DNA of 59,859 nucleotides, the filler included, from Sanchytrium tribonematis (Eukaryota), in assembly GCA_018985235.1 (NCBI GenBank). It is 5 parts of 5 records of this genome, joined end to end, with 100 filler letters (N's around TTAATTAATTAA, not from the genome) between each part and the next. Parts side by side here need not be neighbours in the genome. Positions count along the whole stretch, not along the records: positions 12,011 to 23,916 come from JADGIG010000240.1; 4 more parts are not named here. The stretch is one strand, 5' to 3'. The notes beneath the pieces were generated by a model that did not search any database, was not told the origin of the DNA, and saw only the letters and a list, made by a program, of their open reading frames with translations. Each line of letters begins with the position of its first letter. The stretch's first letter is position 1. Below are positions 12,011-55,800 of the stretch, one piece after another. The position numbers and the translations under genes were made by a program.

Positions 12011-12228
12011 TTGTTTAATTGTTCCATTTCTGTTACATTAAATGCAGATGCTACAGTTTCAATGCCATGTTTTTCCAATTCAAATCCATTTTCATCAAAT
12101 CTACAACTATGCTGCACCAAATTATACTTTGTCGAAATAGTTCTTGATCCAATATTTTGACATCCCATTGTTTTTAAATCAATAGATTCAAATGAAAACA
12201 CATTTAAAATGGCAATCAACATGCACAT
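12011..12228 (-). CDS. Partial paralog of the secreted CmcJ/NvfI-like protein family
   Basis: MCMLIAILNVFSFESIDL...C...FELEKHGIETV parallels YESLDFTQC...FDLKQHGIQII of the adjacent gene. Confidence 0.65.
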
Positions 12229-12313
12229 GTAAACAACAACGTCTTTCGAACATGATTTGTACCCAGTTGTAACTGCTAATGTCCAATCAGCATCTTGTAG
12301 CACATCACAAAAT

Positions 12314-13099
12314 TTATTTGTAATCATTTGTTTCCACGCGTTCTTTAAATCTAAATTCAATAGATTGTCTATCAAATTCTATCCCATAATCTACAGATGA
12401 ATGGAAATAATAATTTGAATTAAAAACAATGGCATCTCCAGTCTCAATATCTTCAAATACAATGGCATCATAATTATGATCATTTTTTGGAATTAATATT
12501 CTTAAATCTTCAACGACAGCTGTGTGATCATCATCACCAGGTCCAATAAAATGTAAATTATGATTTTTAATGGGTTTCCCTAAATTAACCCACACATTAA
12601 AGGTTTCTTCTTGTTTCATTTCTTCAGCAAATAATGTCTGTCTACTCTGTCCATTATTCCAATCTGTTCCCATAAATTCACTTCCAATGATATCTTGATG
12701 AAATAGGGTAATGGGTGCTCTATTGCCATATCCTAATCTTGAATCTCTTGAAGTAAAATCAACACAACACATTTGCATTCTAAATTTGTCTTCCAATATG
12801 TCTTGAATTTTCTCACATTTGCCAATCTTTATTTCTTCGTTATTCCTCACTAAATCTTGAACATCTTTGAAATTGAATATACCTTTTATAATTTGAATTC
12901 CATGTTGTTTTAAATCAAATGAATTTTCATTTGCATTACATGTCTGGTTTCTTAATCTGTAAATGAGTTCATCTCTCTCAAGTTCTTTCTTATATTCGTC
13001 ATTTAATTTGGCAAATATAGTGACAATATCTTCACTCTGGCTACATTGTGTAAAATCTAATGATTCATACGCCATTATATTTATCAGAATAGCCCACAT
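12314..13099 (-). CDS. Signal-peptide protein with CmcJ/NvfI (AsaB-like) Fe(II)/2-oxoglutarate oxygenase motifs
   Basis: Hydrophobic start MWAILINIMA; FDLKQHGIQI, HQD, NVWVNLGKPIKNHNL, GDAIVF, FHSS, RQSIEFR. Confidence 0.7.
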   Translation of the reverse strand: MWAILINIMAYESLDFTQCSQSEDIVTIFAKLNDEYKKELERDELIYRLRNQTCNANENSFDLKQHGIQIIKGIFNFKDVQDLVRNNEEIKIGKCEKIQDILEDKFRMQMCCVDFTSRDSRLGYGNRAPITLFHQDIIGSEFMGTDWNNGQSRQTLFAEEMKQEETFNVWVNLGKPIKNHNLHFIGPGDDDHTAVVEDLRILIPKNDHNYDAIVFEDIETGDAIVFNSNYYFHSSVDYGIEFDRQSIEFRFKERVETNDYK

Positions 13100-13360
13100 G
13101 ATGATGTGGATCGTGATTTGGTTTTGATTTGAAATTGTAATTTGTGTTTCAATTAGAGCCAATCAAATCATTGTACAAGAATACACAAGTAAATTGTGAC
13201 TAGTCATTACATTAGACATTTCAAATCATTGAAAAGTGATTTACTTGACTGACTGATCACGCTGATTGATTTCAAGAATTTAGCACATTCTGTGATTGGT
13301 TCCTTTTATGAATCTGTCTGAGATTGTATTCAAAAAGAGAATGGATCCCCTGTTGGAATA

Positions 13361-13741
13361 ATGATTTTGATTTTATTTGCATTCATGGTATATGGAGGAG
13401 AAGGTCCAGTAGAAGGTATTTCACTAGAAGGTGATCGAGGGCGAGATCCAAATCCAAATGCACGAGAAGGTGAATCTGGTACGTATACTTTAACAAATCC
13501 GGGAGAACCTGTAGAATTCGGTGATCCTTTAAAGTATAATCTAAAGCAGCAAGAATCAGTAGATACAGCCAAGAAAGAACTCATGGATAAAATTAAAGAC
13601 AAGTTTCCAAGTCGAAAAACCATTGAGAAATATGTATCGAGTGCACTTGCTATTGCAGCAGTAATTGCCATTATTGCATTTCTCATTGGTGCCATGATTG
13701 ATATGAAAGATCATCCAGGAACCACTTATGTGACACCACCA
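13361..13741 (+). CDS. Signal-peptide plus single-TM protein; 3' end probably replaced by the LINE insertion
   Basis: MILILFAFMVYGG; acidic/Pro linker; TM ALAIAAVIAIIAFLIGAM; same architecture as genes at 26978 and 27680; the ORF runs into the antisense LINE tail. Confidence 0.6.
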
Positions 13742-13768
13742 TTTTTTTGTTATGAAGTGATTTATTTA

Positions 13769-16700
13769 TCAATTGTCTCGCCCCTCTCGTGCTCTCTCTG
13801 CCTGTGCCTCGGTTTCTGCTATGCATTTTCTAGTAAATACCCTCATTTTACCTAGTTGCTTGCGAATTGCATCTCGCATTTTATTGGTTGCATCCAACCA
13901 TTTTACAGCACGACCAAAAGTCATCCGTCCATCACACATATATAAATCCTGTAGTGCATATTCTTCTAATACTAATGTATACTTGTTGGTGTACAAAACA
14001 AATGGATGATTTTGAGTTGGTTGTAAACTGCACAGATAATCCGCCAAGTTATTTGGCAAGCAGTTACTATGCCCTTTGACCCATTTTAATTCAATATTCT
14101 TGATATTGGGGTTGGTCTGCTGGATAATATCAATGGAACTGATTTTTCGAAAGGAAATATTTTCCTGATAATTTTTGATGGTTTCAATTGCTCCCCGTGA
14201 ATCGCTGCAAATCATCACATCTAATTCCCAATTAATGCGAGTATCGTTACATGCCAGACATATTGCAAGTATTTCAGCACGAGTACTAGAATCAATGATT
14301 AAATCACTGACTTCAAATGACTCAAAATACACACCATTATCAGAGATGATGACGTAGCTTGCCCATCCAAATTTACCCACTTTGGATCCATCTGTGTATA
14401 CCATTACTTTATCAGGTACAATATAATCACTCAATAAACCATGATTTCCTCGTATAATCCTATTTAATTGGATCAAATCGTCTCGTGAATTTGACATGCC
14501 ATAATTGGCAGACACGTATTCTTCCGTCATATTAGCAAAGAAACAGTGTAATACACCTGATTTATGCTCATGAGTGCCATTACAGTTATCACATTCCACA
14601 GAAACACGTGGGATTTGCTTTTTAATAAATGGAATTAATCCTCTGTATTTCTCTTCTACTTGATAATACTGCTTAATGGGTTGCATTGAATACTTCATAG
14701 TGGGTACATATGCTGTATTTCCATTTGATTCCTTGCCAACTCTGTGATTATTCCATTTTATGTGCAATCCACACCAACGAGTGTAGTAATCTGTAAAAGC
14801 AAACATGTCATAGATGTCTTCTAATTTCGTATCACCAGCAGTACCGGAGAAATCTCTCACTGTGGTCAATATGAACGAATTTATGCGTCTAGCCAACTTG
14901 GCATCTGGTTCAAATATTTGAAGTGAATAATCAAGTATTGGGACTAAATACGTTTGTATTGTCTTCATTATCAACTCCATCTTGATGCCACTATATTTAA
15001 AGATTCCGGCACGCACCAGATTTGTCTTTTTAGCATACGCCTTTTCTAGATTCCATTTAATTTGAGTCTTTTTACACAATCCCTTACGATTTAATGCTAT
15101 TCCAAGGTACTTCTTGTACATATCACTGTCAATAACCTCTGTTTTATCATTATTTAGTTCCAAACCAATGCTTTTTAATCTTCTTTTCAAATCAGATTCA
15201 ACTTGATGGCGATAACCTGAACGAGTGAGCAGTATTATGTCATCCGCAAATACAACAATATGGCTATTGCTAGTATCCCAATTATCTAGTGCATTATCCA
15301 GCACTTTTGCAAAAATACCCGGACTTGCTTTTCCCCCTTGTATCACGCCAGATGACGTTGCAAACCCACTGGAGTAGTACTTTCCCAGTTTGATTTTAAG
15401 TACTTGATCCTTTACTAGATTCCAAAGTGCCCTTTTCCAAACAGTATCCAAATTTAAGTCCAGGATCATGCTCAGAATGGCAGATCTTTTCAAGGTATCA
15501 AAAGCCTGCCTTGCATCATATTTTACAATCAACCAACCAGGATGCGCTTTAATCAATTCGTTGAGGTCATAAGCAGCATCAAGGCAACTTGAATTCTTCT
15601 TGAAGGCATATTGCTTGTCAGATGTCTCCAATTCGACTCCCAGCATCTGGAGCAATAAACCTTCAAATAATTTACGTAAATGACTAGCCAAAGCGATTGG
15701 GCGATGGCAATCAATCCTCTCCTTTCTCCCTCTCTTAAAAATTGGCACTATTGATATATTTATGAAGATATCTGGAAATATCCCACATTTGATAATCAAG
15801 TTAAATAAGTCCAAGATGGCTCTGACTCCACTTGCTGGTAGATATTTAATCATCTCATTGGTCACTAGGTCTTCACCAGCACTTTTTCCCATCGGCAATT
15901 GACTGATTTGGATCATCATGTCACTAAATAGGAATTGGGCTTCTGGATCATCATGGCTGTGAATGAACCATCGACATGGCTCTAATTTGTCATCAGCATT
16001 CCATTTTGCCTGCCATACCTCTTGATAATCCTCCAATTTGTCCACTTTTAACTCGGATTTGTTTTGGAACTTGTGAGAACTGCGATTGGATGTTTCTTTA
16101 ATAAACTCAATTCTATTCTGTTTACAGCGTCTATTACGCCAGTTGTCAAGTCTATTCTTCTTCAATTTCTTGATTTTACGTCTAATAGTGTGAGTAAATC
16201 CAGATTTGAGTAATTCTTCCCCAATTTCCTCTTCTTCTGCTGTAAAATCTACTGCCTGTCTAACATTGCTATATTTACATATTTTACCAGCCGATTGGAC
16301 TATCCCATCCACTAATTTCAATGATGCTTTATTTAAATCGTCTTTGATGCGTTTTTCATCATGATCTGGATGAATTTGGTTAATGATGTTATAGTAGTTC
16401 CTAAAATCAAAGTGATTCTCAAAGTGCTCTTCATATTCCTGCTTTCTGTCGTGGAGTAAATAAGATTTGATTTTTGATTCTTTTTCACGGGGTTGTATTG
16501 CAACATCCAATTTCAATGTCAAAATAATCATTGAATGCTCACTCAATTCAGTACGCACAGCGGTGATATCTCTCACAAAGTGAAGGACATTTCCGTTTCC
16601 AGTGGCATGATCAATGTTTGATTCCCGAATCCCATTTTTAGTGTATTTGATAAATGTAGAGTCTGGTGGCTTATCAATCAGTACCTGTCCAAGACTGAAC

Positions 16701-17647
16701 AGTCTATCCATCATTGCATATTCAATAGACAATTTGGCACGGGCCAGATTCAAGTTCCAATCCCCTATGATGATGGTCTTTTTATCCACCCATTTGGCAA
16801 GTTTTTGATTAAAAAACTCCATTTTATCAACATCTCGAGAAGCAGGCAGATAGATAGCGAGAATATTTAGATTATCATTCAATTTTAGCTTGATATGATA
16901 TGGGGAAATGGAGATGACCATATCCGACAAATCAAGATTTCCATACTTGGGATTAACAGTCATACACATCCCGTAATTATTTTTAATTGTATCTGATGCT
17001 ACTCTACACCACCTAGGGGCTTTTCGCAATCCATTCATCTTTGTCTCAGAACAGATAACAATATCCACATTTTCACGTCTATGAAGCTTGTAAACACCAT
17101 AGTGACTGCCTTGAAAGCCATTTACATTGAAATATGCCACCTTGAGAGACGATTTATCCAAATTTTCAATTTTATGGCGACTTCCTCCTTTCAATTCACC
17201 AGCAGCAAACAGCACATCTAGATGCCTAATATGGGTATTGACATCCACTCTTCTACCATTTAATAAAATTTTACACTTTTTGAACCAAAACGGAAATATT
17301 TCTGAAATATTGAAATTTTCATCTACCCATTTTATGTGTCTTTTGCCATTCCAAAGACGCAATTCAATGCATTTTTGCTTACTGATATGTTTGAAAGAAG
17401 TATTATAGGCTTTAATTGACGACGATTTAGTGATTTTGCAATTTTGCTTGAAATCTTGAAAATCAGTCAAATTCCCTGTTGTTTCAAAAAATCCACCAAA
17501 AATGCCCATGAGTGGGAGAAATGACAAGAATATTACCGCAAAATAAAGCAGTTCAAATTGGTTGAAGGTGTCAATATCTTCATAGACTCGTTCAAAGTGA
17601 AAACATATATCCACACGGCAAATTTTTTCCAATTCCAAATGTGTCAA
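13769..17647 (-). CDS. LINE pol-like ORF: hydrophobic segment, ubiquitin-like domain, APE endonuclease, reverse transcriptase, Cys/His motif, RNase H
   Basis: APE: YFNVNG, SETK, GDWN, SNIDH, SEH. RT: HRPIAL, QYAF, DARQAFD, GVIQG, FADD, KYLG. RNase H: YTDGS, RAEI, SDS, WVKGH, NNLAD. Confidence 0.92.
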   Translation of the reverse strand: MTHLELEKICRVDICFHFERVYEDIDTFNQFELLYFAVIFLSFLPLMGIFGGFFETTGNLTDFQDFKQNCKITKSSSIKAYNTSFKHISKQKCIELRLWNGKRHIKWVDENFNISEIFPFWFKKCKILLNGRRVDVNTHIRHLDVLFAAGELKGGSRHKIENLDKSSLKVAYFNVNGFQGSHYGVYKLHRRENVDIVICSETKMNGLRKAPRWCRVASDTIKNNYGMCMTVNPKYGNLDLSDMVISISPYHIKLKLNDNLNILAIYLPASRDVDKMEFFNQKLAKWVDKKTIIIGDWNLNLARAKLSIEYAMMDRLFSLGQVLIDKPPDSTFIKYTKNGIRESNIDHATGNGNVLHFVRDITAVRTELSEHSMIILTLKLDVAIQPREKESKIKSYLLHDRKQEYEEHFENHFDFRNYYNIINQIHPDHDEKRIKDDLNKASLKLVDGIVQSAGKICKYSNVRQAVDFTAEEEEIGEELLKSGFTHTIRRKIKKLKKNRLDNWRNRRCKQNRIEFIKETSNRSSHKFQNKSELKVDKLEDYQEVWQAKWNADDKLEPCRWFIHSHDDPEAQFLFSDMMIQISQLPMGKSAGEDLVTNEMIKYLPASGVRAILDLFNLIIKCGIFPDIFINISIVPIFKRGRKERIDCHRPIALASHLRKLFEGLLLQMLGVELETSDKQYAFKKNSSCLDAAYDLNELIKAHPGWLIVKYDARQAFDTLKRSAILSMILDLNLDTVWKRALWNLVKDQVLKIKLGKYYSSGFATSSGVIQGGKASPGIFAKVLDNALDNWDTSNSHIVVFADDIILLTRSGYRHQVESDLKRRLKSIGLELNNDKTEVIDSDMYKKYLGIALNRKGLCKKTQIKWNLEKAYAKKTNLVRAGIFKYSGIKMELIMKTIQTYLVPILDYSLQIFEPDAKLARRINSFILTTVRDFSGTAGDTKLEDIYDMFAFTDYYTRWCGLHIKWNNHRVGKESNGNTAYVPTMKYSMQPIKQYYQVEEKYRGLIPFIKKQIPRVSVECDNCNGTHEHKSGVLHCFFANMTEEYVSANYGMSNSRDDLIQLNRIIRGNHGLLSDYIVPDKVMVYTDGSKVGKFGWASYVIISDNGVYFESFEVSDLIIDSSTRAEILAICLACNDTRINWELDVMICSDSRGAIETIKNYQENISFRKISSIDIIQQTNPNIKNIELKWVKGHSNCLPNNLADYLCSLQPTQNHPFVLYTNKYTLVLEEYALQDLYMCDGRMTFGRAVKWLDATNKMRDAIRKQLGKMRVFTRKCIAETEAQAERAREGRDN

Positions 17648-17689
17648 ATAAATCTTTCTTTTTAGCTGATACTTAGTGATTGTATTGAC

Positions 17690-18250
17690 TTAGCAATGCT
17701 TTATGGCATCAAAATGAACAAACATGACTGAATTTGTTATATTTTCCTGTTTTGACATTCTAAGATTATAATAAAGTTCTTCAGCTGAATCTTTTAATCG
17801 TTGTATCTCACATTTAACTATATCTGGATGTTGTTTAATTACAGACATCCAATAAAACTCATCAATTCCTACAAATTGCATGTTGGAATAGCGATTTTTT
17901 AATTTTGAAAAAATTTTGATGATTTTTGGCAAGTATTTTTTCTTGCAAATTATCTCTATGAAATCTCCGTTATAAATGGATCGCATTTCATCAAAATAAT
18001 GGGCGCTACCTTTGAATCTGCCCCAAAGGTACCTACGCAATGACTTTGCACATATATCTGGTGGCACATTTGCCAAAATAAATCTTTTATGTTTTCTCAT
18101 GTCATAATACGCGTAAGTATTATTGGGTTTGCAATGAATAGTAAAATGACTATTCGTTTCTCTGTTCAAATGTGAAAATGAACTGTTTATTATGCGCGAA
18201 AATTGACGCAATCGAGGCGGATCTTCCAAATCGAAATCCCCTCGTGTCAT
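17690..18250 (-). CDS. LINE ORF1-like region, in frame with pol across a single TAA
   Basis: 186-aa ORF directly upstream of pol; homologous decayed copy near 19130-19500. Confidence 0.65.
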   Translation of the reverse strand: MTRGDFDLEDPPRLRQFSRIINSSFSHLNRETNSHFTIHCKPNNTYAYYDMRKHKRFILANVPPDICAKSLRRYLWGRFKGSAHYFDEMRSIYNGDFIEIICKKKYLPKIIKIFSKLKNRYSNMQFVGIDEFYWMSVIKQHPDIVKCEIQRLKDSAEELYYNLRMSKQENITNSVMFVHFDAIKHC

Positions 18251-26977: not shown

Positions 26978-27526
26978 ATGCTATTTACATTATTATTGGC
27001 AATGAGGGATGTCAAACCAGGACCTGGGCCTAAGACAGGCGAATTGAGTGATGTTCCAGTGTCTGATCCTCTTCTTGATACACAATCAGGGACTCGATCA
27101 TCATTAACACCAGGAGCTACTGAACTAAATCCGGATGAATTAGCCACACAAGAAACCAGACAGCAAGAGCGAGACACGCCACCATCATCCTCTAATGCTG
27201 AGAGACAACTTGAAGAACTTGGCAGTCGAACGAACCCAAGAGACACGAGAATTGAAAATGAAAAGAGACCACTCACAAGAAAAGATAAAATCATAAATGC
27301 ACTACTCATTACTACTATTATTGCTGGTATATCCACTATCATTGCTGCACTTGCTGCCTGGCTCACTCAAAAAGCAATATACAGTGTTTCTCCAAATGAC
27401 AAAGATATGCCACAAGAAGCCATTCCGAATCCAAAAGGAGGTAATTTCCCAATAGATGGATTTCAAGGAATTCAGTGGCCAGTTTTACAAGATCACAATC
27501 AATGGAACATGCAAACTAGTCAATAA
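26978..27526 (+). CDS. Signal-peptide plus single-TM protein, tandem paralog 1
   Basis: MLFTLLLAM; low-complexity linker; TM; C-terminus MPQEAIP...FPIDGFQGIQWPVLQ. Confidence 0.75.
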   Translation: MLFTLLLAMRDVKPGPGPKTGELSDVPVSDPLLDTQSGTRSSLTPGATELNPDELATQETRQQERDTPPSSSNAERQLEELGSRTNPRDTRIENEKRPLTRKDKIINALLITTIIAGISTIIAALAAWLTQKAIYSVSPNDKDMPQEAIPNPKGGNFPIDGFQGIQWPVLQDHNQWNMQTSQ

Positions 27527-27679
27527 ATGCGATACTTTTAAATGACTTCTCAAGATGCAATTTTTGAGAAAATCACATTCATTTCAAATTGGCATATGTG
27601 ATTGGATCACAAATTCTGTTTGACTGAGAATAGAAATTTGATGATTCATAACTGGAGACATTCCCCAATTAGAAATCAG

Positions 27680-28273
27680 ATGTTTTTTGTGCTGCTACTT
27701 GCAATATTTGGAGGGCCTGAGGGATTTAAATTAACAGAGGGTGGAGAAGTGCAAAACCGAGAGGGATTAGGGCCAGCTTGGACTCCAGAAACACCAGAAA
27801 CGGGTAACCCAACATTAGGAGGCTCTAAAGACACTTCTGGTGATACTCTAGAACCGCCGACATTTGAAGGAAGTGATCCTGTATCAAATGGTTTAGCACC
27901 TGAAATTCAAGAAGTAACTAACGGATTAGAAGATTTGGGTAATAATTTTAAACCCAAGGATCCAAAAGATCCAAAAGATCCAAAAGATCCAAATAAGAGT
28001 GATCCAAAAAAGAACCCGATTATAGAGTATCGAAAGAAGCAGCTTGCATTGGTTGCCATTGCTTTACTAGTTTCAAGTCTAGCTGGTCTTCTTGCAGGAT
28101 TGTTTGTGACGTTATTCGATAAGAAATCAGTGCCAAGTCTATTCCCAAATGATGACAATATGCCACAAGAAGCCATCCCGCATGCAATAGGAGGCAATTA
28201 TCCAATAGATAGTTTTCAAGGGATCCAATGGCCCGTATTACAAAATCAATGGACCATGCAAACCAGTCAATAA
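27680..28273 (+). CDS. Signal-peptide plus single-TM protein, tandem paralog 2, with a KDP repeat
   Basis: MFFVLLLAIFGG; (KDP)4; TM; C-terminus MPQEAIP...YPIDSFQGIQWPVLQ. Confidence 0.75.
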   Translation: MFFVLLLAIFGGPEGFKLTEGGEVQNREGLGPAWTPETPETGNPTLGGSKDTSGDTLEPPTFEGSDPVSNGLAPEIQEVTNGLEDLGNNFKPKDPKDPKDPKDPNKSDPKKNPIIEYRKKQLALVAIALLVSSLAGLLAGLFVTLFDKKSVPSLFPNDDNMPQEAIPHAIGGNYPIDSFQGIQWPVLQNQWTMQTSQ

Positions 28274-32594: not shown

Positions 32595-34353
32595 GGTAAA
32601 TGGGAATAATGATCCAGAATTGAAGAGAATCATTCCCCTTTCATCCCCTTTCTACCCCCAACAGAGACGTAGACCTTGAGAGAATTTACATTGGTGGGGA
32701 AAGAAGCTTTAAAATAAATCATTTCATTGGTCAATACGTCTTTAGCGTAACTAGCCTATTGATTGGATCATGATTTCCCCATGTCTCAAATCCAAGGTTT
32801 CTTCCCCTTATTATGGCTTTAATATTGCCAATACAACTACGCTGTGTTCATTTTTGGTTGTTTGACGCTCATGGCTTTCATTTGGTACTAGTAAGAACTA
32901 TATTGAAAAAGTACTTTTCAAAATAATTTGAAGTTGTAGTTGCAATTTTACACAATTCAATTAATTAGGTGGCATTTCATTGTACATGAATACAATCACT
33001 CAAAATCAATTTTAAAAACATATATAGATGTATTTTAACATAACAAAGCCATATATGACTTTATTTTAGAAAATAAAAGAGAAATGAAGGAGATACTAAG
33101 GAAATTGTATGTTTTATATCACATTTTTCCACCCCTTGGCAACACCTCAAAAAAACATTAAACAAAATTGCAAAACCTAATATCAGTATTCTTTTTGACG
33201 AGCTATCAAATGATATTGTTTAAATTTTCATATCATTAATATTGAAGTTCAAATTTTGGGTTAAAATATGAAATTTTTAAAACCTAATTAAAGATATCAT
33301 ATAGCATTCACAAACTCTTGGTAGTGCTCCGTTTTGGGGCCATTGTTTATCTCTACTTAATAAATTATTTCTAAACATAAAATCGTAGAAATATTCCTCT
33401 ATTTGATGAAATTTTGCACCATTTTGCGGCAAAAATTTACGTAATCTACTCCATAAACCCTTAATTCGCTGAGTGTGAATATTAGTGTTAACAGGATTTA
33501 CAAATCTCCCGATACCTGGAAGAGAATGATTAATTGAGAAATGCTCAAAATCAGGATAATTATCCAACCAATTATATGATGCATAAGCATCTGTATATAT
33601 TGTAGAGTGTTTTTTGGCAATCTTTTTAATAAAATATTCCATCGTTTCCTTTTTTCTGTTAAGAACAGGAATAATAAAGCATTTTTGTGTCTCTCTTGAG
33701 ACCAATCCAAGAACCCAAAATGTGCATTTTAATCTTCCTCTATTATATTTCCTTTTTCTAAAAAGTGCTTCATCTATCTCTATTTCTTCAGATAATGGCA
33801 TAGACAATTGTCTTATTGCCTGTTGTTGATAATTGCGAAACATTTTGAAAATTACTCCAGCTGTTTTTCTGCTTATTTTCACACATGCTGGCACTTTTGA
33901 TGGAGATATACGTGCATAAAAGCACTTTAATAACGCACAACAACGAAATAATGGAATTTTGCGATGTGAAAATAAGGATCCACATCTTATACTTTTATCT
34001 TGACCACAAAAATCGCAGTACCAAAAACAACCATCTGCAATGCTTTTATTTTTATACAACTTCATTGGTTGTATAATTTCAAGTTGTTCACAACGTGGGC
34101 AATTCATTTGATTGGCAAATATGCCCACTTGTTGCAAAATAATGGCGCATTTGTAGTTATCTTTCAATTCGCATATGTCTTCAATGAAATTCAATTGATC
34201 AAATGACATGTTTAAAGGAGCATGACACGAGAAAGATATGACCAAATGCTATTTATTACGTATTTTAGCGCATGACTTGAAATTGTTTGAGATAACAACT
34301 TCCATGTTTTGGAATGTCGCAGATATATTTCTAGACTAATGTTCCCATATACC
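32595..34353 (-). mobile_element. Merlin (IS1016/IS1595-like) DNA transposon nested in the MITE
   Basis: Imperfect TIRs GGTAAATGGGAATAAT and GGTATATGGGAACATT; 8-bp TSD CAAAATTT at 32587-32594 and 34354-34361. Confidence 0.85.
33277..34245 (-). CDS. Merlin/ISXO2-type DDE transposase; third catalytic residue appears mutated
   Basis: N-terminal CPRC...WYCDFC ribbon; EIDEALF...KYNRGR, IYTD, INHS...FVNP, HTQRIKGLW. Confidence 0.9.
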   Translation of the reverse strand: MVISFSCHAPLNMSFDQLNFIEDICELKDNYKCAIILQQVGIFANQMNCPRCEQLEIIQPMKLYKNKSIADGCFWYCDFCGQDKSIRCGSLFSHRKIPLFRCCALLKCFYARISPSKVPACVKISRKTAGVIFKMFRNYQQQAIRQLSMPLSEEIEIDEALFRKRKYNRGRLKCTFWVLGLVSRETQKCFIIPVLNRKKETMEYFIKKIAKKHSTIYTDAYASYNWLDNYPDFEHFSINHSLPGIGRFVNPVNTNIHTQRIKGLWSRLRKFLPQNGAKFHQIEEYFYDFMFRNNLLSRDKQWPQNGALPRVCECYMISLIRF

Positions 34354-41059: not shown

Positions 41060-42767
41060 TTATTCCAAAATAGGTCCTTTCATTCCTATAGTTTCTAAAA
41101 TATGCTTGTGTTCAGACTTCAACATGTGTAGCTCATATTGCCACGAAGTCTCTCTATTGGGATTAAACGCCGAAAATACCTCGTCCTGCTCAGGATTTTC
41201 ATACCTGGTAGCAAAAAATTGAGGGTCTGTATTAGATGGTGTCTCTCTTAAAATTGTTAGTTTGTGGAATAGATAAGCAACACAAGGTTGCTCCGGCCTA
41301 GGCATTATGACAGTTGGGGCTCGACCCGGTAAAACCTGTGTGGTCTTTACAGGATAATGATAACCTCCAGGAAAAAATATTGATTCCACCCAGCGATAGT
41401 CGCTTTTGTATCTTATCCTATGAAACAGATAGCATATTTTACCTTCAAGAACACCAGTCAAGCCATATCTCATTTTTTCATAATCATCGTCGTGCACAAA
41501 ATCAAGAAGACATTTGCCAAATAATTGATATGCTTTCATTCCAAACATTTCATCGGCTAGTTTTCTTGGAGAGCAAGTGAGAAAAATTCCTTTCGTGCTC
41601 ATTTTTGACCAAAGAGATCTTTGCCCAAAACCAGCAAAAGCGTCAAGATCATTATAGTTCAGAGTGGGCAAATATTGTTCACGTGCTGAAAGAATCAAAA
41701 TTCGTTTGCCTTTTGGTCTTTCACATACCATGCCTAAATTAAATAAAAGTACATCGTCCTTGAACACCGAGCCAAGTATAGCCGGAATTCCTTCGTTTAA
41801 ATCTAAAAATCATATGAATTGGTTGATCTGCAATGTGTGGCAGGTTTTTAAACTCTCGCATTATTCCAACCCAATCTCCACTGTGGCAAAATTCACTCAA
41901 GTTTTTGTTTATAATTTCCGATGGTTCGTATTCTAAAAATTCGAGACAAGCTTGGTTTACGTGTATAAATTGTCCTTTAATCGATAAGCATAATAAATAC
42001 GGTATGGAATCTAAAAGGCTTTCATAAAAAATGCTTTGAGGATCAAGTCCCTCACTATTCCCCATCATGTCAACTATAAATGGCTTCAATATATCAGTCT
42101 CATCAAATTCGTCTAAATTTTTTAATTCTCCTATGTGCTCGCGATCTATGTCATATTCTATTTTTACTTTTACTTTTTGGTCTACTTGATAATTAATGGT
42201 ATATATTCCCTCGCGCATGCATCGCATAATATTATAAGGTTGATCAATCAAACTCACTTGAAATCCAATAAATAAGTCTAAAGGGCCACCCTCGTAAGAA
42301 GAAACAGGGATTATAGTGATAAAATTGATAAATGGTTCTCCTCCTTTTTTGTAATTAATTAATGAATATTGGCACTCCTCCAAATCATCCAAATTTTTTC
42401 TTATTTGATATACTACATTGTTGTCCGTATATCTTCGTCTTGAACCCTTTGTGGCGAGCCCATCAGCCTCTGTTGAAACTGATTGCAAAAATCTACAATT
42501 ATGACCAACGCATTCGTCTGCCCTGTATCCAGTTAATTTCTCAAAAGCCTGACTTATATATACAATTGGGGTGTCTTCTTTTGTTCTATCGGATATGCAA
42601 AAGGAACAACTCATGTCAACTGGTCCCAAACTCACTTTTGCGTTTTCTCGGTAATAAACCCTGGCAAGAATACCCATTATATCAAATCCAGTGTAGCTGT
42701 ATATGTGGGGTCCTTCTCTAATTTTTGTTTTTGTAATCCCTATCCCACCATTTGCATTTGATGACAT
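41060..42767 (-). CDS. wc-1: White Collar-1-like LOV/PAS blue-light photoreceptor without a GATA finger; two exons, 42767-41753 and 41733-41060
   Basis: YSYTGFDIMGILARV...LGPVDMSCSF, GHNCRFLQ with the LOV Cys, two further PAS domains, TSWQYELHML. Confidence 0.92.
41734..41752 (-). other. 19-nt spliceosomal intron in wc-1
   Basis: GTACTTTTATTTAATTTAG; phase 1; gives SGYTWLGVQGRCMVCERPKGKRILILSARE, continuous through PAS-B. Confidence 0.9.
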
Positions 42768-42915: not shown

Positions 42916-43323
<408 letters not shown>

Positions 43324-50705: not shown

Positions 50706-51554
50706 TTATTCTTGATGAATACATTGAAGTGATGGAAACTTGTTCAAGTATTGCTCGATTTCCTCTTTAGAAAGAGATTTTTGTCTACAGTACCCAGTCG
50801 GAAAAGGGTGCCATTGTAAGCCTCGAATGATTGTAAGCCGTTCTAAGACTGGACAGCTATGAAATATATTCCAAATTCCCGCGTTGCATATGGATGATCC
50901 TGTAATTTTGATAGATTTTAGCGTGCTTGGTAAATTCTTGAGAAATGAAGGGCGAATTTTACCTAATCTTTCACTGTGGAAAGTGATTAAATGCTTCGGA
51001 AGGTGCTGTAAAATACATGCAGTCGCTTTTTGTGATGAAATGTTCAAGTGTAGCACTCCAGTATCCTCAAATTGTCTCACACCATAATCAGAAATAAAAT
51101 TGCACTCAAATAATTCTATTTTTTGAAGACTTTTACAATTTTGAGAAATGAGATACAAGCACGTATCTGAGACATCTGTGCGTGATAAATTTATGACTTT
51201 TAATGTAGGGCACCTTTTCGTGATAATGTGAAAATAATTTCGAGGTAAATGCATGTCCCTCAAATCCAATTCACTCAGTACACGCAATTGACGAGACAAT
51301 TTTAACAAAAACTCGATATTTTGAAATCTCGTACCTGTAGGGATATATAATCTTTTGATATATCGCGACACCCTGTCCAAATTTTCCCTTAAAATTTCGT
51401 AGTCACGTCGCTTTGTTAAAACTGTATTTCTGTAAAGAATTCTTTCACTTGACTCAAATATTCTTGAGTTTAATGTCATGAGACTCAAAAGGTCATTTCT
51501 ATCTAAGAAACTAAAGATTTTTTCAAGTATGAATTCATCTAGTTTATCCAACAT
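50706..51554 (-). CDS. F-box/LRR protein
   Basis: LDKLDEFILEKIFSFLD F-box; CPTLKVINLS, CKSLQKIELFECNFISDYG LRRs. Confidence 0.85.
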   Translation of the reverse strand: MLDKLDEFILEKIFSFLDRNDLLSLMTLNSRIFESSERILYRNTVLTKRRDYEILRENLDRVSRYIKRLYIPTGTRFQNIEFLLKLSRQLRVLSELDLRDMHLPRNYFHIITKRCPTLKVINLSRTDVSDTCLYLISQNCKSLQKIELFECNFISDYGVRQFEDTGVLHLNISSQKATACILQHLPKHLITFHSERLGKIRPSFLKNLPSTLKSIKITGSSICNAGIWNIFHSCPVLERLTIIRGLQWHPFPTGYCRQKSLSKEEIEQYLNKFPSLQCIHQE

Positions 51555-51865
51555 TTCAAGCCACAAATATATACCAAATTTATTATAATCAACTTTCGAT
51601 TCTCTGCATCTTCATTCTATGTATAGCTATTAGCATTCTAAATATATTTAATCCGAGTGGATTAGGGATGAGTGGAAAGTGGTGTTGGACCAAACCCCAT
51701 TTTTTAATATTCTTTTTGAAGGTGTTGTTTTGAATTGTTAATCCTTTCGAAAATAGAGTTTCTTGAGATGGGATTTATACATGGTGCTTGTGCTCAAATC
51801 GTTCATACTTACTTTTTTAGGTAAAATTTCAATTTGCCTTTCATAGCCTATTTTATTCTTTGAGC
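51552..51865 (-). pseudogene. Decayed duplicate of the 3' end of the PACT-domain gene (copy of 52784-53126)
   Basis: Near-identical start CATTTCAAGCCACAAATATATACCAAATTTATTATAATCAA, then similarity with indels. Confidence 0.85.
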
Positions 51866-51877
51866 TACTAAAGGCTT

Positions 51878-52061
51878 TATCTCGACACCCTGTCCAAATT
51901 TTCCCTTAAAATTTCAGACGTGCGTCGCTTTGTCAAACCTGTATTTCTGTAAAAGATTCTCTCACCTGACTCAAATATTCTTGAGTTTTAAGTCATGAGG
52001 ATCAACAGGTAACTTTATCTAAAAACCTAAGTTTTTTTAAGTAATAATTCATCTAGTTTAT
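51878..52061 (-). pseudogene. Decayed duplicate of the 5' part of the F-box gene (copy of 51361-51547)
   Basis: Shared CGACACCCTGTCCAAATTTTCCCTTAAAATTTC...GACTCAAATATTCTTGAGTTT. Confidence 0.85.
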
Positions 52062-52348
52062 ATAAAAACTGTAACTAAGTCGAAAATTTCATTTTGAGAT
52101 ATTTCAACTTCAAATGTAAAAAGTAGACTAAGTATTTCATTCGTAATACAAACCGATGCCAATCATGTTCTTAACCTAAGCAAATAAAAGTATGAGATAA
52201 AAAGGAATATGATTACGATACCATTGAAGGTGAAATGATAAATTGTTTTATTAAAATAAAGACAAACATCAACTCGATTTGAAGGAAAAATATACTATTG
52301 TCGACGGGTAGATAGTCTTATGAATATCATGGATTTCATTTTTCTGAC

Positions 52349-52726
52349 ATGCAATCACGAGGAACAATTTCTTTCACAAATGAAAATTGCTATGAGTATG
52401 AATTTCCTACCTACATCATTAAAGTAGGCCGAGTTAATGCTGACATTGTAAGGGTTTCATTTCAAAATCTACAAAGAATTGATATTCCAGTACCACCTCA
52501 AACTTTTCACCATGATTTACAAACTGGTGATATAAACAATGATTTCAATGGCAGCTTTTTTGTCACATGGAACGGTCGTCACGAAATTATCACAAACGGT
52601 GTTGCTCTTATCCGGTTTAACAATCAACGCCAAGTGAGTGTTATGAGCATCTGTGAACATTGGGCTGTGCGTGATGTAGTTGGACGTATTGTTCGCCAAG
52701 ATGGACAAGAATTGCTGCCAATTTAA
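52349..52726 (+). CDS. Hypothetical 125-aa protein inside a 722-bp insertion
   Basis: Intact ATG-TAA ORF with globular, beta-strand-like composition. Confidence 0.55.
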   Translation: MQSRGTISFTNENCYEYEFPTYIIKVGRVNADIVRVSFQNLQRIDIPVPPQTFHHDLQTGDINNDFNGSFFVTWNGRHEIITNGVALIRFNNQRQVSVMSICEHWAVRDVVGRIVRQDGQELLPI

Positions 52727-52820
52727 AAGATTCTATACTTGTCGTCCAGGCAAATGAAATTGATGTTTTTTAATACGTTGTCCCATTTCAAGCCACAAAT
52801 ATATACCAAATTTATTATAA

Positions 52821-55800
52821 TCAAGTTTCGATTCTCTTCATCTTCATTCTATGTATAGCTATTAGCATCCACGCAGCCATTCTAAATTTATTTAATCTGA
52901 TTGGATAAGGGCTGAGTGGAAGGTGGTGCTGGACCAAACCCCATTTTTTAAGCAATATTTGATATTCCCTTTGAAGGTATTGTTTTTGATATTGTAAATC
53001 CTTGCGAAAATAGAGTTCCTTAAGATATTGGGATTTATATTTGGTACTTTTGCTCAAATCGTTCATATTGACTTTTTTGAGTAAAATTGCAATTTGCCTT
53101 TCATAGTCCCTATTTTGGTCTTTGAGTTGATGATAATGTCTCAATTCCTGCTCCAACTTCAATTTTTCCAGTTTAATAAGGGAGTTTTCATTAATAATCG
53201 CGTCTTGGTGATTTTTAAATTCAATCAAAACCTCTGATATTTCCCGTTTTTCTTTTTCAAGTATGGTAATCGTTTGTTCCGCATCAAAGAAATCATCAAG
53301 CCTACTCTGAAGTGTCTGAATATGGACTTTGTGCTGACTTATTTCCAGCATTTGTTGAGAAATGACATTTTCAAGTGATTTCACATGTTTGTCCAAATCA
53401 TATGTTTTTTGGGCTTGTTCTGGTGATTGAGGATCTAAAGATTCTTTTGAACTGATCGGGGTTTTAACTTGTTCTAGTTTTTCCATAAATTCGCTCAATT
53501 GTTGGTTCTTATTCACCAAACAGCCTTTTATTTCATCCAATCTTTGTAAAATATTTGGATCTTCTTGTAGTAAGATACTATCAAGATTATTCATATAAAT
53601 CTCATCTTCTTTGACAACAGTTGATATAATGTTTCTAATAATGGAAATGGAGTCTGAAGTAAATTCTTTCAGATTATCCAAACTCGGTGCTTCAGTCATT
53701 GTTGGTTCTTCTTCCAATTCTTCACGATCTTGTTCCAAATTCACAACATCATTTTCAATATTTGCAATTATATGCAATAAATCGTCTCGTTTCTGCTTTT
53801 CCCGTTGTAAATCTTGCATCAATTCTTGATATTCCATATTGATTTGATTCAATTCGGCTCGAATTTTTTTCTTTTTTAGTAAAATATCATCGTAATCAGA
53901 TTGCAATGCAACCATGCGTGTTTGCTCAGTCGATATTTCAGTTTCCAGCTTGTCTGCTTTAGATTCCATTAATGAAACTTGAGCACCACAAAGCTTTAAA
54001 TTTTCCTGTAACTTGTCTATCATTTCTTGGTAATCGTCATTGTCTTGTTGCAATTCTTCATATTTTTTAGCCAAATCTATCCGCAATGAGCCTAGTTCTG
54101 ATAAAATCATTTGAGCAACATTTTTCATATCAGACACTTGATAGATTTTTTGGTTTGAGTATTGAGAAATCAGTTCCTGCCATTTGATGAGTTCTTGCTC
54201 CAGTTCAAATTCAGTAGCGGAAACGGTCTCTTTTGTGTTACTTAAATTTGCAGCCAGTTCTTCATTTTTCTCTGAGATATGGATTGTTTCTTGTTCCAAC
54301 TGAATTTTCTGAGATTTGACTTCATTCAGTGTTTGTAATACTTTTTGCAAGTCTAAAACCAAACCATGTTCAGATTTGTAGCCATTTTCCAAGGAAATAT
54401 CAATCAGATTTGGATATTCAATTTTCAACTCTTCAATCTCATTACTGATGCTTTTGAAATCACTTTCCAACTGTAATTGCATTTCTCTGAGGGTCGCATT
54501 TAAATTTTCTTGCATTTTTTCAGTTCTTAGCTGTTCTTGTGCCAATGTTTCATTTTCATTTATCATGCCTTCAATTTCATTTGTCAAATTTTCTTGCTGT
54601 AATTGTAATTCCTCAGATTCGGCTTGCAAGGATTGTATTACACTTTTCTGATTTTGTATATCTTCAGTCAAATTAAATACTTCATCGTCCAATCGAACCA
54701 AATTAATTTGAGCAGATTCGAGTGTCGATTCATTCTCAACAATACCACGCTTGACAAGTTCTATTTGAGATACGATATCTTTGTTTTTGTTATTCAGAAA
54801 TTGCATTAGATCCGTGTTTGTTTTTAAAGTCTTTTCAATCTGTAATCTTTCTTGAACATCTTTCTCGATTTGAGAAATGTCTATTACTGGAATAGTGTAA
54901 TCTATGCTTCGAAGTTTATCAATCATTTCACCAATAATCATGGATGAACTCGACTGCTGAATTTTTGGACCAGAATACTCGATGTTGAGCTCCGGAATTT
55001 TGGAAATATCCGGTATTTTAAGACTTTTAATTTCTTTCGGGATGTATTTTTCAAGTTTTGGTATATTTTTAAACGTCGGGTTTGCGACAAATTTTAATAC
55101 GTTGTAGACTTTTAATAAATGACTGTCCAGTTTATATTTGTGTATTTGGTCGATGACCATATCGTATTCTTGTTTGATAGTTTTTAATTTGATAAGACCT
55201 TCTTGCTTGGCTTCTAAAATTTCTTTTTGTTTGTTTGTAATATTTTGAACCAAAGATTTGTGTTCGGCATCCAGATCAAAATACTTGGCAGAACTTTCGT
55301 CGTACTGTTCTTGAGTAATTTGTGCATTTAGAGCCACTAATTTTTTGTTTTTCTCAGCTAATTTGGATTGTAATTTAGAAATTTCCTTATCAACAGACTC
55401 CTGCTTAAGCATTAGTTCCGACAAATTTTGATTTGCGTTTTCTTGAATGGTATTAGTAAATTCAACTTTTTGGTTCAGTTTAATTTCCAAATCTTTAATT
55501 GTAGTTTCCGCGGAGTTCACTTCGGATGTAACAGCTTCTAATTTTGTTACTTTTGAGTGCAATTCTTCTTCGAGGTATACCAACCTATTCTTAGCAATAT
55601 CTAGTTGAGTTTCAGTTTCCTCAATATTTTTCATTATTGTCCCCAATTGAGTATCCAGATCTGACTTTTCCTCTTCGGCTAGATTTATTTGTTCATTAAG
55701 GCTATCTAATTGTAATTTTAATTGATCAGAAAAGTCTTTGGCCGTTGATATAGAATCATTGAGGTGACTCTCATTATCATCTAATAATCGGGTAGAGAGC

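Follow-up and report, generated by a model that had tools for sequence, protein, structure and literature searches.

The window analysed here, meaning the whole 59,859-nucleotide stretch of Sanchytrium tribonematis DNA, carries on its minus strand a gag-pol frame of 1,493 codons (13769..18250) that is broken in this copy by a single TAA. Judged by its sequence, the element is an APE-type non-LTR retrotransposon with the APE endonuclease N-terminal to a non-LTR reverse transcriptase (RT), and the order along it is a gag-like part, a hydrophobic segment, a small domain, a pair of glycines (GG), APE, RT, zinc finger and RNase H. The APE domain (16505..17149, minus strand) matches Pfam Exo_endo_phos with an E value of 0.18 here and of 4e-5 to 0.24 in relatives; its motifs N, E, Y, GDxN, DH and H align, and a family profile compared with human L1 ORF2p matches from the endonuclease onward (E 1e-28). 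The last APE motif (around 16530) is SEH in the window and xYH in P0015, P0016, P0017 and P0072; most of the family has SDH there. The RT core (15095..15709, minus strand; Pfam RVT_1, E 2.7e-24) has an intact FADD, and the RNase H domain (14030..14410, minus strand) matches Pfam RNase_H at E 4.2e-12. Between them sits a zinc-finger-like C-x2-C-x4-H-x8-C (14543..14593, minus strand), a pattern found in 14/15 family proteins tested; I-group elements have the zinc finger and RNase H in the reverse order. Neither a recognisable protease nor an E1/E2-like gene is present in the element.

The Gag/ORF1-like N-terminal region (17693..18250, minus strand) is given its putative function from its position; it looks RRM-like by eye, and family searches returned no match and left the RRM identity unconfirmed. 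Two in-frame ORFs on the minus strand abut at 17690/17689 with one TAA between them, the downstream one (13769-17509) holding the RT, the RNase H and weak APE matches. The upstream ORF (17690-18250) resembles the N-termini of P0020, P0021, P0023 and P0047 (z 5.7-8.3, 0/300 shuffles each), while its similarity to P0025, P0050 and P0016 was not significant in the shuffle test. Homology to single-ORF relatives continues past the TAA, and the N-terminal residues of the window element and its relatives align (MTRG/MTQG). The TAA (codon 187; 17690..17692, minus strand) is TCA in the sole contig of run X1 that spans it (692 bases, depth 82), a reading that depends on this one contig from a run whose contigs drop rare variants. 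Run X1 contains 92% of the words sampled and may be the source of the window. From the TCA, the homology across the TAA and the aligned starts we conclude that, apart from the stop in this copy, gag and pol form one ORF of ~1,490 codons, and the TAA probably belongs to this copy alone or arose in assembly. An alternative code with TAA as Gln was rejected, since TAA ends 16/19 host ORFs checked, and so was the Met at 17509 as a start of pol, since it is CTG in another copy and homology extends upstream of it. An earlier note on this DNA had placed the small domain at residues 92-155 of pol, upstream of the endonuclease. The domain does lie next to APE, but in the interior of a gag-pol ORF starting at 18250 rather than close to the beginning of a pol of its own. 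The idea of a polyprotein stands on firmer ground than the author of that note knew, because gag and pol appear to be one ORF.

Diverged or deleted copies are found among 115 contigs of run X1 aligned to the window, showing that the element is repeated in the genome. One X1 record of 836 bases (depth 48) on 14814-18118 is a heavily deleted copy from which short pieces remain, 17164-17331 among them; its version of the small domain has a stop and gaps. Copies differ by nine changing and two silent differences in the linker and by one changing and two silent in the covered part of the domain, too few for an inference about selection. A comparison aimed at a target-site duplication and a poly(A) or repeat tail gave only 8-10 base AT-rich matches. 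The downstream flank at 12020-13772 has one identical contig at depth 111, compared with 26-41 for other identical contigs nearby, and may itself be repeated.

Elsewhere the window, which comes from a gene-dense eukaryote with the standard genetic code, encodes an IS1595/Merlin-type DDE transposase (33277-34209, minus strand; Pfam E 1.2e-12) and, at 41060-42767 (minus strand), two ORFs that by eye are LOV/PAS parts of a putative white-collar-type photoreceptor gene. At 13361-13855, 26978-27526 and 27641-28273 lie small proteins, each hydrophobic at both ends and of low complexity in between; the last two share DNA at 76-81%, and they are possibly a secreted or membrane family. The stretches 51361-51864 and 51878-53126 form a local duplication, 83-84% identical. 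The host ubiquitin of the Ub-eL40 gene (43075..43302, minus strand; Pfam ubiquitin E 2e-32 plus Ribosomal_L40e) lies outside the element and serves only as a comparator.

The small domain and its predicted fold

The small domain comprises 64 residues (17183..17374, minus strand) and is assigned to the beta-grasp, or ubiquitin-like, fold from a predicted structure and from its homologues in P0015 (1-65, z 8.9) and P0017 (57-121, z 8.2). Its last four residues, L-K-G-G (17183..17194, minus strand), complete a tail of five residues and are the putative site of protease cleavage. Retranslation agreed with the earlier note in the 64 residues, the LKGG end and the five listed identities to the window's ubiquitin, and the endonuclease profile begins 11 residues after the GG, near the 13 or so estimated there. 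In contrast, the by-eye alignment with ubiquitin proved no better than chance, with a local score of 23 against 20.1 +/- 3.5 for shuffles, and since 21% of 2,000 shuffles equal it, the ubiquitin claim would fail on pairwise likeness alone. The domain profile compared with ubiquitin gave an HHalign value of 0.2%, with 26/60 shuffles as high, and searches with the domain gave no Pfam family at E<=5, nothing useful in PDB sequences and no match in the Atlas. The domain does not belong to the ubiquitin family proper (PF00240), lacking both the sequence match and the length of ~76 residues. Its tail has Glu at the place of ubiquitin Arg72, a residue with a role in E1 selection.

Prediction of the fold from the single sequence (420 residues) failed, with a pLDDT of 30. 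An alignment of eight rows (the window, P0015, the inner domain of P0017, a fragment of P0072 and units of P0021, P0023, P0025 and P0050), used without a ubiquitin row and without a template, gave an AlphaFold2 model with pLDDT 77 and pTM 0.60 (69-77 over five models); for four of the eight rows the link to the domain is weak (HHalign 19%, 0/60 shuffles). The model has strands at 6-12, 18-24, 40-44 and 61-65 and a short helix at 29-32, and the GG lies on a five-residue tail beyond the last strand, as in ubiquitin. All 45 Foldseek matches listed are ubiquitin-family chains or domains (probability 0.90-0.99, TM 0.45-0.62), two of which we take to belong there and the rest by title; no Foldseek match reached E<=0.001. 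Among 48,161 chains compared by VIA-align the best was Mth1743 (Z 6.5, rmsd 2.9, 67 aligned residues), followed by the DRG1 TGS domain (Z 6.0) and MoaD (Z 5.8), with 17 chains at Z>=5 and none at Z>=8, levels that may mean only a common arrangement. Beta-grasp domains make up nearly all of the best 50 VIA-align matches listed, and the structural neighbours are MoaD/ThiS, TGS, SUMO and ubiquitin, with modest scores. The alignment-based model and these neighbours thus predict the beta-grasp that the earlier note had suspected, and its ubiquitin register agrees with the predicted strands. In strand order and structural match, at modest scores, the domain is predicted to be a minimal beta-grasp with a five-residue tail, which on this model is a short fold of ThiS/MoaD/TGS size and not ubiquitin. 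With the fold resting on an alignment-based model and fold searches and the GG kept in relatives, we regard the feature itself as real.

Relatives and the gag-pol junction

A phmmer search found 25 proteins at E<=1e-30, 11 relatives cover the start of APE, and Sanchytrium tribonematis was the source name for two of the ten family proteins looked up. A metagenome scan for the element found 0 loci, a word-index search returned only the query with residues 1-360 and one family member (P0002) with residues 520-1180, and a five-row profile search added no new member. In quick trees the family is a branch of its own (SH-aLRT 91, with LINEs without clade names as outgroup), and the window groups with P0015, P0016, P0017, P0072, P0019 and P0022 (16 rows, SH-aLRT 96); an RT-only quick tree of 46 rows does not fix its place. 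The junction is present in 5/7 members of this clade, and the protein starts of P0015, P0016, P0017 and P0072 may be truncated.

In 4/5 members of the close clade an L-x-G-G precedes the endonuclease by 11-17 residues, as against 0/7 other family members and 1/21 other LINEs, these LINEs being unrelated elements with at least 25 residues upstream of APE. For the family against other LINEs the counts are 4/12 and 1/21 (p 0.047), a p value that overstates the contrast because kin are not independent and only four sequences bear the GG, three of them of shared ancestry. The motif is in the same register in the window, P0015, P0072, P0017 and ubiquitin, so that the conservation asked about in the earlier note is seen in three of the four closest relatives with a known junction. 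These relatives are only ~29% identical to the window in APE, and the linker after the GG shares 0-3 of 11 residues. In the four GG members the residue at -5 is E, P, R or R and the residue directly after the GG is S, Q, A or M. The GG thus recurs in 4/5 of the clade and 4/12 of the family, a small sample, and, as in protease-processed ubiquitin-fold precursors, it directly follows the last strand and is itself followed by an in-frame product. P0016, inside the clade and apparently intact, has neither the domain nor the GG. The seven other family members are also without the GG, and five of them have another small unit at the junction.

In P0017 the inner homologue of the window domain (57-121) has no GG end, and a second domain of 76 residues (145-220) that is ubiquitin-derived (z 16.6, 0/1000 shuffles) ends in L-V-G-G, after which APE begins. 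This second domain is identical to ubiquitin at 22/76 positions without gaps, with 9/12 identities in the last 12 residues against 13/64 elsewhere (Fisher p 4e-4); the Pfam ubiquitin match on the whole protein (E 0.073) is below the cut-off. P0072, the sister of P0017 in the quick tree, has a last strand of the window type with GG. The sequences indicate that in this family either of two different domains can provide the same tail at this position. The simplest reading, in which the order of events is our reconstruction, is capture of a ubiquitin-family domain that then supplied the GG in place of the older domain, which decayed.

Upstream of the small domain the window element has a hydrophobic segment with a signal-peptide-like end (17495..17551, minus strand; Kyte-Doolittle 2.24 over 19 residues), 119 residues before APE, and 7/9 relatives examined have similar segments. 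In P0020, P0021, P0023, P0025 and P0047 a hydrophobic segment with Pro and a small-x-small end lies 73-84 residues before APE and is followed by a different small unit without GG; these internal signal-peptide-like segments are at P0020 293-311, P0021 399-414, P0023 426-443, P0025 674-692 and P0047 291-308. In P0016 and P0050 a hydrophobic segment adjoins APE. A signal-peptide-like rule, written after the leaders had been seen, fitted 6/10 leaders at the true hydrophobic segment and 28/160 control cores. Such segments may be another release device, with a possible signal-peptidase site, or they may anchor the protein in a membrane and so create the need for release. The gag regions of P0021 (252-374), P0023 (256-387), P0025 (425-653) and P0050 (309-439) have tandem units of 60-70 residues without GG, which are weakly related to the window domain (HHalign 19%) and are probably more beta-grasp domains.

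Proposed processing at the junction

The reading that we favour, with moderate confidence, is that a host ubiquitin or ubiquitin-like protease cuts after the GG and frees APE-RT-RNase H from the gag-like part. Gag and pol would be translated as one polyprotein, cleavage would follow the G-G of the predicted beta-grasp domain, and the products would be a gag-like protein of ~356 residues and an APE-RT-RNase H protein of ~1,137 residues. The protease would be the host's, because the element encodes none that is recognisable, and the benefit would presumably be that the endonuclease gains a free N-terminus and is detached from a leader that is hydrophobic and possibly bound to a membrane. The single frame, the domain order, the kept L-x-G-G and the insert in P0017 all argue for such a cut, together with the predicted fold. 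The reading is weakest in two respects: neither in sequence nor in size does the window domain come close to ubiquitin, and P0016 and the sister clade manage without such a domain. We know of no eukaryotic protease that processes ThiS/MoaD/TGS folds.

The domain could instead be an uncleaved binding module, either TGS-like and RNA-binding or an adaptor to a protein or the proteasome, with the GG as a flexible linker before the endonuclease. TGS domains are indeed among the top folds (Z 6.0, 5.4 and 5.0), the tandem units of relatives, probably of the same kind, imply by their lack of GG that the fold has some role that does not need it, and the Burro gypsy element has an internal SUMO-like domain for which the accessible part of its description reports no cleavage (PMC6431247). 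A binding role does not account for the retention of Leu at -4 and of both Gly on the APE-adjacent unit alone, or for the ubiquitin copy in P0017 having kept its tail while the inner small domain is without GG. We regard a binding module as unlikely, while ranking it first among the alternatives to cleavage.

It is more improbable still that the domain is a signal for degradation or down-regulation, through ubiquitin-fusion degradation or the N-end rule, that holds pol at a lower level than gag whether or not cleavage occurs. Ubiquitin fused in frame is known to signal degradation, but the residues that follow the GG (S, Q, A, M) are mostly stabilising under the N-end rule, and an intact GG favours removal of the domain over its retention. 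A low output of pol has also been proposed for 2A in L1Tc (PMC3708506).

The earlier note had also raised the possibility of a conjugatable GG-ended leader, and the gag part might after release be conjugated to proteins or act as a sulphur carrier like Urm1 or MoaD. A beta-grasp with a free C-terminal L-x-G-G would suit this, and the fold neighbours include MoaD, SAMP1 and Urm1-like chains, but the released piece would be ~356 residues long with a hydrophobic segment before the GG, position -5 (E, P, R, R; Glu at the Arg72 place in the window) offers no kept E1 determinant and the element is without an E1/E2-like gene, so that we find no support for the proposal and give it very little credence. 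That there is no ubiquitin-like domain and the GG is accidental would fit the background-level pairwise and profile comparisons with ubiquitin, but is largely refuted by the fold model, the homologues and the P0017 insert.

Host cleavage after the GG may be part of a wider pattern, which we put forward tentatively and with more doubt than the cut itself. A LINE family whose named members come from sanchytrid fungi, with gag and pol fused and no protease of its own, would rely on proteases of the host, recruited by interchangeable cleavage modules where gag meets pol: a minimal ubiquitin fold with L-x-G-G, a captured ubiquitin that replaced the minimal domain in one lineage, and an internal signal-peptide-like segment in the sister clade. 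The minimal domain would then be a GG-processed fold of ThiS/MoaD size cut by a eukaryotic protease, a type of substrate of which, to our knowledge, there is no example.

Comparison with known systems

LINEs normally separate the packaging protein from the enzyme by using two reading frames, or by a 2A skip in some single-ORF elements. If our reading is true, LINEs would have, in a ubiquitin fold cleaved by the host, a third way to separate gag and pol, and retrotransposon activity would be tied to host deubiquitinases. Our literature search turned up no account of a LINE whose endonuclease follows a ubiquitin-like domain ending in GG, and supplement tables, subscription journals and Repbase could hold one.

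The closest LINE parallel, also named in the earlier note, is the 2A peptide, which lies just upstream of APE in ~50 mostly single-ORF elements (Ingi, L1Tc, CR1, Crack and others; PMC3708506). The position and the proposed split of upstream functions from pol are alike, but 2A acts by ribosome skipping in cis, whereas the folded domain and its L-x-G-G would depend on a protease of the host. None of the 12 family rows has the motif D-x-E-x-N-P-G-P within the 45 residues upstream of APE, and no NPGP precedes APE in the window element; the same scan found the motif just before APE in two unrelated control LINEs, P0073 and, in altered form, P0168.

Among cellular precursors, Ub-eL40/eS31, FUBI-eS30 (PMC8354635) and SDE2 (PMC13572447) have the same arrangement of a diverged ubiquitin fold, GG and then a working protein, and are cut by USP-family enzymes. 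Their domains are N-terminal and about the size of ubiquitin, unlike the internal and shorter domain of the window. In size (~65-70 residues) and short helix the window domain is closer to ThiS/MoaD/Urm1/SAMP and TGS (1ryj, 6jc0, 3rpf and 2eki), of which the sulphur carriers also have a GG end, but identity is only 12-23% with no link at the sequence level, and the window domain is embedded in a retrotransposon polyprotein. The giant gypsy elements Burro and GYPSM1 carry a Ubi2/SUMO-like domain and so also have a ubiquitin-like domain within a retrotransposon polyprotein; they are LTR elements with their own protease, their domain is not at the endonuclease, and the accessible text mentions no GG or cleavage (PMC6431247).

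Cytopathogenic pestiviruses (BVDV CP1, Osloss-type and CP Rit) offer a further precedent, in that captured ubiquitin is described there as a signal for processing inside the polyprotein, where cleavage by hydrolases of the host sets the N-terminus of the downstream enzyme (PMC8310069). P0017 looks like the same event and, if so, would show pestivirus-style ubiquitin capture in a non-LTR element. The viral inserts are sporadic and near-identical to host ubiquitin in an RNA virus (PMC8310069), whereas the window's clade has an old, diverged domain, mostly a 64-residue minimal fold, that is fixed in a retrotransposon clade.
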